Origin: Aplysia californica | Lineage: Eukaryota | Assembly (NCBI RefSeq): GCF_000002075.1 | Contig: NW_004797766.1 | Span: 280,315 to 344,314, forward strand | DNA length: 64,000 nt | Direction: 5' to 3' | In this document: positions 25,795 through 27,501 of the stretch, one piece after another | How the letters are laid out: each line of letters opens with the position of its first letter | Position numbering within the stretch: the stretch's first letter is position 1 | Translations under genes and position numbers: made by a program | Notes under the pieces: generated by a model | The model's input: the letters and a program-made list of their open reading frames with translations, nothing else | Database searches by the model: none | Told to the model about the DNA's origin: nothing

Positions 25795-26181
25795 GTCTAA
25801 ACATACCAACAAGGACTATCACTCTCAAACACTTCCGTTCCGTTATTCAAGGGCTTCAATGCATCTCTCAAGAAAAAGCTAAATATGAGAGTGACGTCCC
25901 TTGATAATCAGTTTTGTCGTCTGCTTGTCTTTCGAATTCGGAAGTTGTAGATTCTACAGAAGGAAGGCTCAGATCTGTTGATTTACCGAAAAGACTATTT
26001 AGATTTAGATTCTAATCTAGATCTAGATCTAGATCTAGATCTCTTAAAAAGAGCATTGCATCACTTTTTAGTCACCTTTTGACAGCTTGCAGTGATAATT
26101 GAGAAGAGCGAGGGAAAAAAAGTAGATTCTAAATAGAAAGTTCTGAAAGGACGTACACGACTAAGAGTCCACACAACAAAG
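25795..26181. promoter_or_regulatory. Bidirectional promoter and 5' UTRs shared by the Plp1-like gene and SYCP3
   Basis: 387 bp between divergent ATGs. ETS-type ACTTCCG at 25831-25837 and CGGAAGT at 25939-25945; MYB-type CCGTTA at 25840-25845; CRE-like GTGACGTC at 25891-25898; YY1-like GCCGCCAT over the minus-strand ATG. Confidence 0.75.
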
Positions 26182-26308
26182 ATGACGCGCCCCAAGAAAG
26201 CTGAGCGAAAACCATCCCAGTCCCAGTTGAAGAACTTTGATGAAGACTTCGAAAATGAATTGAACGTCCCCAATGAAGACCCTTTCAGTTTTTCAGGACA
26301 GCAGAGAG
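26182..26308 (+). CDS. SYCP3: SYCP3 coding exon 1 ([42 protein letters not shown])
   Basis: ATG in AAAGATG context; phase-1 donor G|GTAGAT fits exon 2. The N-terminus is poorly conserved, so this is the least certain exon. Confidence 0.8.
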
Positions 26309-27501
26309 GTAGATCTAAACTTACGTTCTCAAGATTGAACTTATGTTGATGAATGGCTCTCAAGCAAGCAATGTTCTGCCGTCTGCTTTCGTCTCCACTT
26401 TCTACCCCCACCACCTCACCTCCTTTGCCCCCTCCTCTGGGCTCCTGACTCTTTCTGCAGCCTTTTAGGCCTACTAGGCCTATATAAGATCTACTCCCTT
26501 GCTCCTTCTCAGCCACACCCCTGATCTTCTGGTAGGAAAGATCTAATCTACACCTAGCCTTCTCGGACAATGGCGAAAAACGTCAGAGGTCCCGTGTGTT
26601 AGCCCAGTTGCGCTCGTTAATAAAGGTCCCTTGGTGGTCTAAAATCGATAAGAGTAGAATCTAGAATCTAGATCTAGGCTTCGGTTGCCACCCGGGCAAA
26701 ATTAAAAATTTCTTACCAACTGTGTTTTATGTGTCGCGTGCGCTCATGACCTTATAATAATGAGTTGCGTGCGAGCGCTTTAAAACACTTACAAAGACAA
26801 AAGCTGAATATTATCTCTAGATCTAGATCTAGATCTAGATTCTAGATGTAGATCTAGAGTCGAGATGTTCTAGATCTGATCCTAGATATCTAGATAAATC
26901 TAGATCTAGATTAGATCTAGAGAGATTCTATATTGTTATTATTGTTAGTAAGCAGCTCATGATCATTCATGGCTTACCTGCATTTGGGAAGTTCTCATAG
27001 ATGTACACTGTAGCTCTATGGAAGTTCTAGAAATCTATCTAGGCCTAGATATAGATCTAGATCTAAACCAAGGAGTTTACAGTAATGGAGGATGCTCCGT
27101 AAGCGGCAACGCACGCCTGATAGGAGCCCTCTCTCGCAGCGGAACTGTGGTCTACCTGCGCTGCGCTCACGCAATGAAATATAGATTTAAAGAAAGAAAG
27201 TTTTATTCCGAGATTAGGCTAGTCAATTAGTAAGAATGCCTTCCAAATGTGTTGTGTTTAAGTGTAAGAACCCATATGATGCTGCAGAGGACAGACGTTT
27301 TCACAGGTGTTGTTTTCCTTTATAAAAAATCTGGATGAAAGTGTTTTTATGCCCCCAGCGACACAATTTAGATCATTAACATTTATAAGAGGCTGGCTCT
27401 GTCGTTACCTGCCAAGGCCAACCCGGGCAGAAAGGGATACACTGTAACAACACCCCAGAAGAAAGACCGAGATACTTGATTTTTTAAAAACATTCTTATT
27501 C

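Follow-up and report, generated by a model that had tools for sequence, protein, structure and literature searches.

Palindromic TA-flanked units at the 5′ end of a molluscan SYCP3 gene as probable transposon excision scars

Excision of Tc1/mariner transposons leaves the terminal 2-4 nt of the element between two TA dinucleotides, and the footprints described in the relevant passages of two sources retain the bases of one end, the dominant form for both Tc1 (TACATA/TATGTA) and Sleeping Beauty (TACAGTA/TACTGTA) (PMC6943129; bioRxiv 10.1101/2025.10.09.681459). Members of the PHIS superfamily (Harbinger, ISL2EU, PHISTA) make 2-bp or TA duplications, according to excerpts of two further papers (PMC12730594, PMC10045372). 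Short promoter words of another kind have been described in the hypomethylated promoter domains of medaka and zebrafish, where linker-enriched 6-mers such as GCTAAC are treated, in the passages drawn on here, as conserved nucleosome-positioning signals (PMC5607494).

The window, a 64,000-nt stretch of Aplysia californica DNA that is part of a 927-Mb animal genome, holds a cluster of palindromic units in which a short filler stands between two TA dinucleotides. In common with Tc1/mariner elements as portrayed in those passages, the system has a TA duplication, a few terminal bases left between its copies and a symmetric target bias around TA. It differs from them in that both ends would leave two bases (GA + TC), one-end forms are unenriched, and the candidate element ends in GAG...CTC; here, moreover, the putative scar recreates the target that the element prefers and occurs in arrays, and tens of thousands of fixed copies are clustered near genes. 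We judge it probable, at about two chances in three, that the units are excision scars of TA-targeting cut-and-paste DNA transposons, that feedback between scar and target makes arrays grow, and that the cluster at SYCP3 is a hotspot of this process. The open-access full-text literature (main texts, without supplements) yielded no paper on such an origin and nothing relevant on TAGATCTA, on TAGGCCTA as a promoter motif or on TACATGTA as a footprint.

A one-sided motif cluster at SYCP3

The core motifs TAGATCTA and TAGGCCTA accompany two divergent genes, with the following features.

19106 to 19327, minus strand: thioredoxin-fold exon of the divergent gene, from a fold match
25700 to 25795, minus strand: probable first coding stretch of that gene (MAASATAEK...), a predicted stretch in which a few RNA reads lie
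25999 to 26042, unstranded: array TA-GATT-TA-GATTC-TA-ATC-TA-(GATC-TA)3 between the divergent genes, 140-180 bp upstream of the SYCP3 ATG
26182 to 26308, plus strand: probable first coding exon of SYCP3 (MTRPKK...), with 0 core motifs inside; the gene is identified through a later exon
26309 to 26317, plus strand: probable exon-1 donor GT of SYCP3, overlapping a TA-GATC-TA unit
26816 to 26930, unstranded: largest array, directly 3′ of a SINE copy, with fillers GATC, GATTC, GATG, GATATC, AATC and GAT
27034 to 27066, unstranded: array TA-TC-TA-GGCC-TA-GA-TA-TA-GATC-TA-GATC-TA
34146 to 34241, plus strand: C-terminal exon of SYCP3 (Cor1 region), with a PDB match

The name SYCP3, given in an earlier note on this DNA, is backed by the PDB match of the later exon (E 1.7e-5); the Cor1 match of the exon (E 0.0012) falls below the cut-off. 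The exon-1 donor reads GTAGATCTA, with GT at 26309, just as the note described it. Exon 1 received 0 reads in one poly(A) run of unknown tissue, which is uninformative on germline expression. The divergent thioredoxin-fold gene is presumably Plp1-like/TXNDC9. A 280-aa frame with RNase H (23224-24063, minus strand), a retroelement fragment, lies in the stretch from the thioredoxin-fold exon to the divergent promoter, and contigs from two other samples carry a 16-nt deletion allele at 25367-25385.

All 13 copies of TAGATCTA in the window fall within 26018-27058, together with three of the 11 copies of TAGGCCTA (26466, 26475 and 27040); the other eight are scattered. The region 25995-27070 thereby holds 16 of the 24 core motifs against 0.025 expected from the dinucleotide content of the window, which bears out the description of the motifs as dense near the promoter and sparse elsewhere. 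The cluster is one-sided: core motifs number 0 in 24700-25795, on the side of the thioredoxin-fold gene, 3 in 25796-26181, between both genes, and 13 in 26309-27100, which is SYCP3 intron 1. Placement around the promoter, as first proposed, is thus correct for the SYCP3 side and the intergenic DNA but not for the other gene's side. The whole region can be parsed as TA alternating with the fillers GATC, GGCC, GAATC, GATTC, GATT, AATC, GAT, ATC and GATATC.

Length polymorphism had been suggested as a check, and contigs from two other samples are indeed shorter than the window, by 29 nt (310 letters over 26693-27031, where the window has 339, with 0 substitutions) and by 12 nt (241 letters over 26885-27137, against 253). 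Both shorter alleles overlap the largest array. The flanks of the focal units are single-copy by contig depth.

Recurrent gains at fixed SINE sites

Part of the cluster lies inside a repeat, a SINE with a tRNA head that measures about 520-545 bp and is represented by at least 8,323 candidates in the genome. Two copies and three sites of gain in the window are relevant here.

26367 to 26802, plus strand: 5′-truncated SINE copy (26-kb copy), aligning from majority position 129, 78% identical
26466 to 26493, unstranded: gains of TA-GGCC-TA twice and AGATC-TA in that copy, where the majority reads CTACTGCTA
26539 to 26549, unstranded: gain of 5 nt (TA-ATC-TA) at an AGATCTA native to the SINE, from comparison with the majority
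26655 to 26676, unstranded: 20-nt gain TA-GAATC-TA-GAATC-TA-GATC-TA at the GAG-TA-GG site, from comparison of SINE copies
51039 to 51575, plus strand: sister SINE copy with a tRNA-like head, 0 core motifs and a 6-nt insertion of its own at AGATCTA

The identity of the 26-kb copy to the SINE majority (78%) compares with a median of 89% in other copies. Because the majority of 30 SINE copies shows the empty state at the sites of gain, the 26-kb copy must have gained its units. The proposal that the palindromes were added after the SINE inserted is thereby upheld, and the converse, that they already belonged to the SINE consensus, does not apply. The 20-nt gain and the stretch TAGGCCTA-C-TAGGCCTA-TATA-AGATCTA agree with the earlier description. 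The GGAAAG.. comparison between the two copies stands in part: the majority reads GGAAAGATCTACAC, from which the 26-kb copy gained 5 nt, but the 51-kb copy is derived too, by a different 6-nt gain, and the pair is a comparison of two derived states.

At fixed sites of this SINE, a recurrent and independent change converts TA into TA-(GATC, GGCC, GAATC...)-TA. The GAG-TA-GG site is unchanged in 7,655 copies and carries an insertion of at least 2 nt in 101. Among the 100 of these that were listed, 16 copies besides that of the window carry a G..C filler enclosed by duplicated TA (GATC in five, GGCC in three, GCC and GGC in two each, and GAATC, GCTC, GGGCC and GGCCGCC in one each), although both GGC fillers could be plain tandem duplications. 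The rate of gain is about 0.2% of copies, and the window copy has three units at that one site. Fourteen gaining copies were compared with one another; each pair has 0-2 rare substitutions in common, no more than random pairs (mean 0.46, 95th percentile 2), and the gaining copies therefore do not form one subfamily. The same listed rows contain CCG (2), CCGG, CCGA and CATA between duplicated TA, and a MITE whose ends begin with CGGGG after TA is present in the genome; these fillers may have been left by another family, one whose footprints do not cluster with GATC.

At a second site, CC-TA-GCC, 18 of 51 rows carry GATC, GAATC, GATTC or GACTC, after which the SINE resumes; the remaining rows comprise 21 substitutions, 2 deletions and 10 others. 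Four of these 10 were retrieved and proved to be one intact element, one SINE interrupted by unassigned sequence and N, and two sequences that are not the SINE. A third site, G-TA-A, showed no GATC or GGCC unit among the 100 rows listed out of 189; about 40 were true short insertions. As expected of a footprint, a single TA occupies the empty site, and two TA enclose a short filler at the filled one. The preferred flanks of isolated units are C-TA-G for GATC and G-TA-C for GGCC, in either case with a purine at -3.

These sites also bear on hairpin opening of the P-nucleotide (hAT) type, a candidate of the earlier note. A palindrome derived from the flank should be GGCC at TAGG, and at CCTAGCC either GCGC or GGCC; instead GATC, which is not the reverse complement of either flank, dominates both. 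Hairpin opening is therefore unsupported.

Gaining copies are mostly found in motif-poor DNA: 18 of 20 have at most one core motif within 1.5 kb. Their flank density (0.36 per kb) exceeds that of ordinary copies (0.14, p 0.038); copies bearing insertions of other kinds reach 0.52 (p 0.41).

A candidate donor family

A candidate donor surfaced only when a SINE site served as a trap. At one locus (L304, G000:C560), a SINE copy is split at CC-TA-GCC by an intact 874-bp element with TA on both sides, so that this site offers one intact element against 18 scar rows. The element ends in GAG and CTC, has 27-nt inverted repeats (85%) and subterminal repeats, and contains no frame longer than 85 aa; it thus shows the TA target duplication and terminal inverted repeats of a Tc1/mariner transposon. 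Blind scans of 1.1-1.7 Mb for TA-flanked inverted repeats and repeat boundaries yielded Tc1-like (AAC...), pogo-like (CAG..., CGG...) and Harbinger ends, and no GAT or GGC donor.

Two bases from each GAG...CTC end make TA-GA-TC-TA, that is TAGATCTA, and three plus two make GAGTC or GACTC. A comparison with transposon termini had been recommended, and here the ends of a TA-duplicating element do match the filler, its terminal bases accounting for GATC, GACTC/GAGTC and GCTC. For GGCC, no bona fide GG...CC donor was found in the DNA retrieved. Apparent GG-ended pairs (L243, L260 and L232) are internal points of longer inverted repeats.

The GAG family is young: it comprises about 30 copies with a length of about 1,015 bp, and most are 96-99% identical. 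With a search pattern that excluded C six bases before TA, all 49 listed ends are preceded by TA, 45 by CTA, 28 by TAGATCTA and 2 by TAGGCCTA; for comparison, TAGATCTA represents 0.74% of TA in the retrieved DNA. Copies with unlike flanks at C72, C693 and C702 show that the duplication is TA rather than CTAG. The 21 ends outside the full motif have C at -1 in 17 cases, a purine at -3 in all 21 and A at -5 in 16, which defines a half-site A-n-R-Y-C-TA. Isolated TAGATCTA units (388 half-sites) have the same three biases (0.39 vs 0.16 at -1, 0.61 vs 0.46 at -3 and 0.41 vs 0.33 at -5), so the flank bias of the scars equals the target bias of the element. TAGATC and TAGGCC both fit the half-site, and each scar would therefore provide two ideal targets. 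The likely scar TAGATCTA is thus also the preferred target of the GAG family, a feedback loop that the earlier note had missed.

Runs of two or more units are formed by GATC in 114 of 692 cases (both strands counted) and by GGCC in 2 of 222. This is as expected if GATC rebuilds C-TA-G and GGCC does not rebuild G-TA-C, although the contrast could equally come from slippage. Further GAG-ended sequences adjoin arrays, and for some of them the array is internal to the repeat.

Per TA, the 3+2 fillers GAGTC/GACTC are enriched 20-fold in motif-rich kilobases, and CATG, CAG and CCG are not. One-end footprints, by which membership in Tc1/mariner would be judged, are not enriched in these kilobases (0.5-fold for TA-GAG-TA/TA-CTC-TA and 1.5-fold for TA-GA-TA/TA-TC-TA). 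The units work like a Tc1/mariner footprint, yet they depart from that group in this property. The earlier suggestion of a TA-targeting transposase footprint accordingly gains from the TA duplication, from a fixed filler that the flank does not template and from the matching element, but not from one-end forms. Motif-rich bins contain 93 GAATC/GATTC against 25 GAGTC/GACTC, so that added A/T or other families are needed, and the 16,852 forward matches of the 16-mer TAGATCTAGATCTAGA in the genome, set against about 30 GAG copies, call for older families or slippage.

ISL2EU elements follow an end rule of purine-purine...pyrimidine-pyrimidine with a 2-bp duplication, which the GAG element would fit. 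Sola3 elements have GAG...CTC ends, as here, but duplicate TTAA rather than TA. No transposase gene tied to the GAG family was found among the profile matches and long copies examined. None of the listed DDE_3 or DDE_1 matches (best candidates, compared by eye) lies inside a listed GAG copy, and none of 8 YqaJ matches overlaps one. The inverted repeats found in 30 DDE_3 loci begin AAC or CAG, and the ends found among the 20 retrieved of 105 DDE_Tnp_4 matches are AGA...TCT flanked by AT and TWA-flanked Harbinger types. Three long GAG-family copies, considered as an autonomous partner, hold nested repeats and not a transposase.

Among nested repeats, those of 1.18 kb and 1.0 kb in L307 and L308, with ends TAGCAATGCCAAT, lie in a GAG element and have near-identical copies in L231, L241, L247 and L262. 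A GAGCC/TAGCC family has inverted repeats of about 350 bp, many pairs 3.9-4.0 kb apart, with TAGATCTA nearly always adjoining (G000:C1:4094100-4098051, C16:275097-279005, C154, C172, C303, C462, C479, C703, C784; L249:5089-6805), and is a candidate autonomous partner or array-carrying element.

Other transposons were also encountered. A young ISL2EU-type transposon of 4.6 kb (L283:2061-6682 and L284, in G000:C309 and C1092; copies 99.2% identical) has open THAP+DDE_Tnp_4 and YqaJ frames, and TAGATCTA units occur in the upstream region of the element as well as around both insertion sites; since it duplicates AT and ends in AGA...TCT, it was rejected as the donor. A 1.55-kb Harbinger family (L295-L301) has a TWA duplication and unequal ends, GGCC... 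and GTGC.... A Tc1-like family of about 1.66-1.75 kb (L182-L210) has ends that begin with AACTAGTC after TA, and several copies have open DDE_3 frames.

Position relative to genes and origin of the units

Core motifs number 0.12 per kb in 29 ordinary-SINE loci, 0.25 in 30 Tc1-like loci and 0.26 in 20 P450 regions, against 0.48 in 12 proteasome and 0.61 in 40 Ras-family regions of 10 kb (one-sided p against P450 of 0.007 and 0.012, uncorrected). Each region was positioned on the Pfam-matched exon lying furthest 5′, which for three proteasome regions was a later exon, so that gene 5′ ends here are exon-based proxies rather than mapped start sites. On this basis the density near the 5′ ends of Ras-family and proteasome genes is 2-5 times background, and it peaks at three germline genes. 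From the gene-class densities and the motif-poor flanks of gaining SINE copies, we conclude that single events are widespread and that clusters lie near 5′ ends. The position-dependent process of the earlier note is consistent with the local concentration near these proxies, but there are also single gains remote from any cluster.

Counted in the best kilobase, core motifs number 13 at SYCP3, 11 around the probable first exon of a multi-Tudor gene and 7 directly upstream of the first long exon of a RING/B-box/Tudor gene; we take the latter two to be TDRD and RNF17, with a germline role. Maxima elsewhere are 10 (Ras-family), 4 (proteasome) and 7 (P450). Eight other Tudor-domain regions score 8, 6, 6, 6, 3, 2, 1 and 0, the one scoring 2 being an SNase-domain gene. 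More than 20 near-identical short Tudor-domain matches (profile positions 81-120) form tandem clusters in G000:C5, C645, C720 and C1782 and probably represent an amplified gene. An automatic first-exon split of the Ras set gave 2.5 vs 0.8 motifs, which is not significant (p 0.21). A record of germline accessibility in particular is hypothetical: clusters are found at broadly expressed genes as well, 18 of 20 gaining SINE copies have motif-poor flanks, and the first-exon split adds no significant difference. Any fixed gain must arise in the germline.

The proposed origin would work as follows. An element with ends GA...TC would duplicate TA on entry, and its exit would leave two bases per end, converting TA into TA-GATC-TA; a putative GG...CC family would give TA-GGCC-TA. 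Each scar would then be two new ideal targets. Rounds of entry and exit, probably with slippage, could grow (TAGATC)n arrays wherever transposase first had access, probably in open germline DNA around first exons, and the SYCP3 cluster would be one hotspot of such rounds.

Transposon-independent repair or insertion at CTAG/TAG sites, by end-joining with fold-back or an ectopic template and then slippage, with GAG elements doing no more than landing there, is in our view unlikely. It would accommodate the great excess of scars over elements, the missing canonical one-end footprints, the common GAATC/GATTC/GATATC and the shorter alleles of the two other samples, and slippage could extend GATC arrays once CTAG is repeated. 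It does not explain why the filler is independent of the flank and equals element ends, including GAGTC/GACTC/GCTC, or why the element also enters motif-free sites with the same flank bias as isolated scars; the GATC and GGCC flank biases, moreover, differ as two enzymes would make them differ. That the clusters are passengers of dispersed repeats with internal (TAGATC)n is hardly credible, although in one repeat of 121 copies the same 25-mer is preceded by TAGATCTA in most of the 100 listed, and both the young ISL2EU-type element and a MITE have internal arrays. At the focal sites this origin was rejected, since the units there occupy a SINE that has none in its majority sequence, as well as single-copy flanks.

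On another view, which we consider quite improbable, selection maintains the palindromes as sites at which a promoter factor binds or positions nucleosomes. The enrichment near 5′ ends is in keeping with it, as are the specific 6-mers that mark accessible linkers at teleost promoters in the passages of PMC5607494; the same 6-7-nt insertions, however, occur in SINE copies with motif-poor flanks, filler length and sequence vary, and array length differs among samples. Selection may act on the units afterwards.

If excision scars are the right reading, a very common palindromic repeat (>16,000 16-mer matches per strand) would be a transposon by-product and not a factor site, and promoter motif-enrichment studies in this genome would misread it. 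The loop from scar to target would be an origin for a microsatellite, length change would be concentrated at the promoters of genes such as SYCP3 and piRNA-pathway Tudor genes, and germline-accessible DNA could be inferred from the assembly alone. With a candidate donor family identified, the idea can be tested. More tentatively, the elements might write their own landing pads: exits that leave TAGATCTA would give open germline promoters a self-amplifying palindromic microsatellite whose density maps germline access, with the same loop at work elsewhere. From array density one could then read, in the sequence alone, a heritable map of chromatin access in the germline of this mollusc, and a similar loop built on different element ends could account for the unexplained TA-flanked promoter words, specific to single lineages, of other animals. 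The fish linker 6-mers are a possible parallel by analogy. As described in the passages of PMC5607494, they are likewise short words that contain TA, lack a known factor and are concentrated where promoter DNA is accessible; the words here are shown to be insertions, and those passages give no origin for the fish words.

Array loci were also surveyed along one contig (C1), where a Pfam scan of 297 reading frames around 20 such loci named few genes. Clusters lie 5′ of a GST-like exon, a PRP38 exon, a presumably TSEN2-like exon and three transposase frames, and one lies 3′ of a transposase frame; the remaining loci are uninformative.
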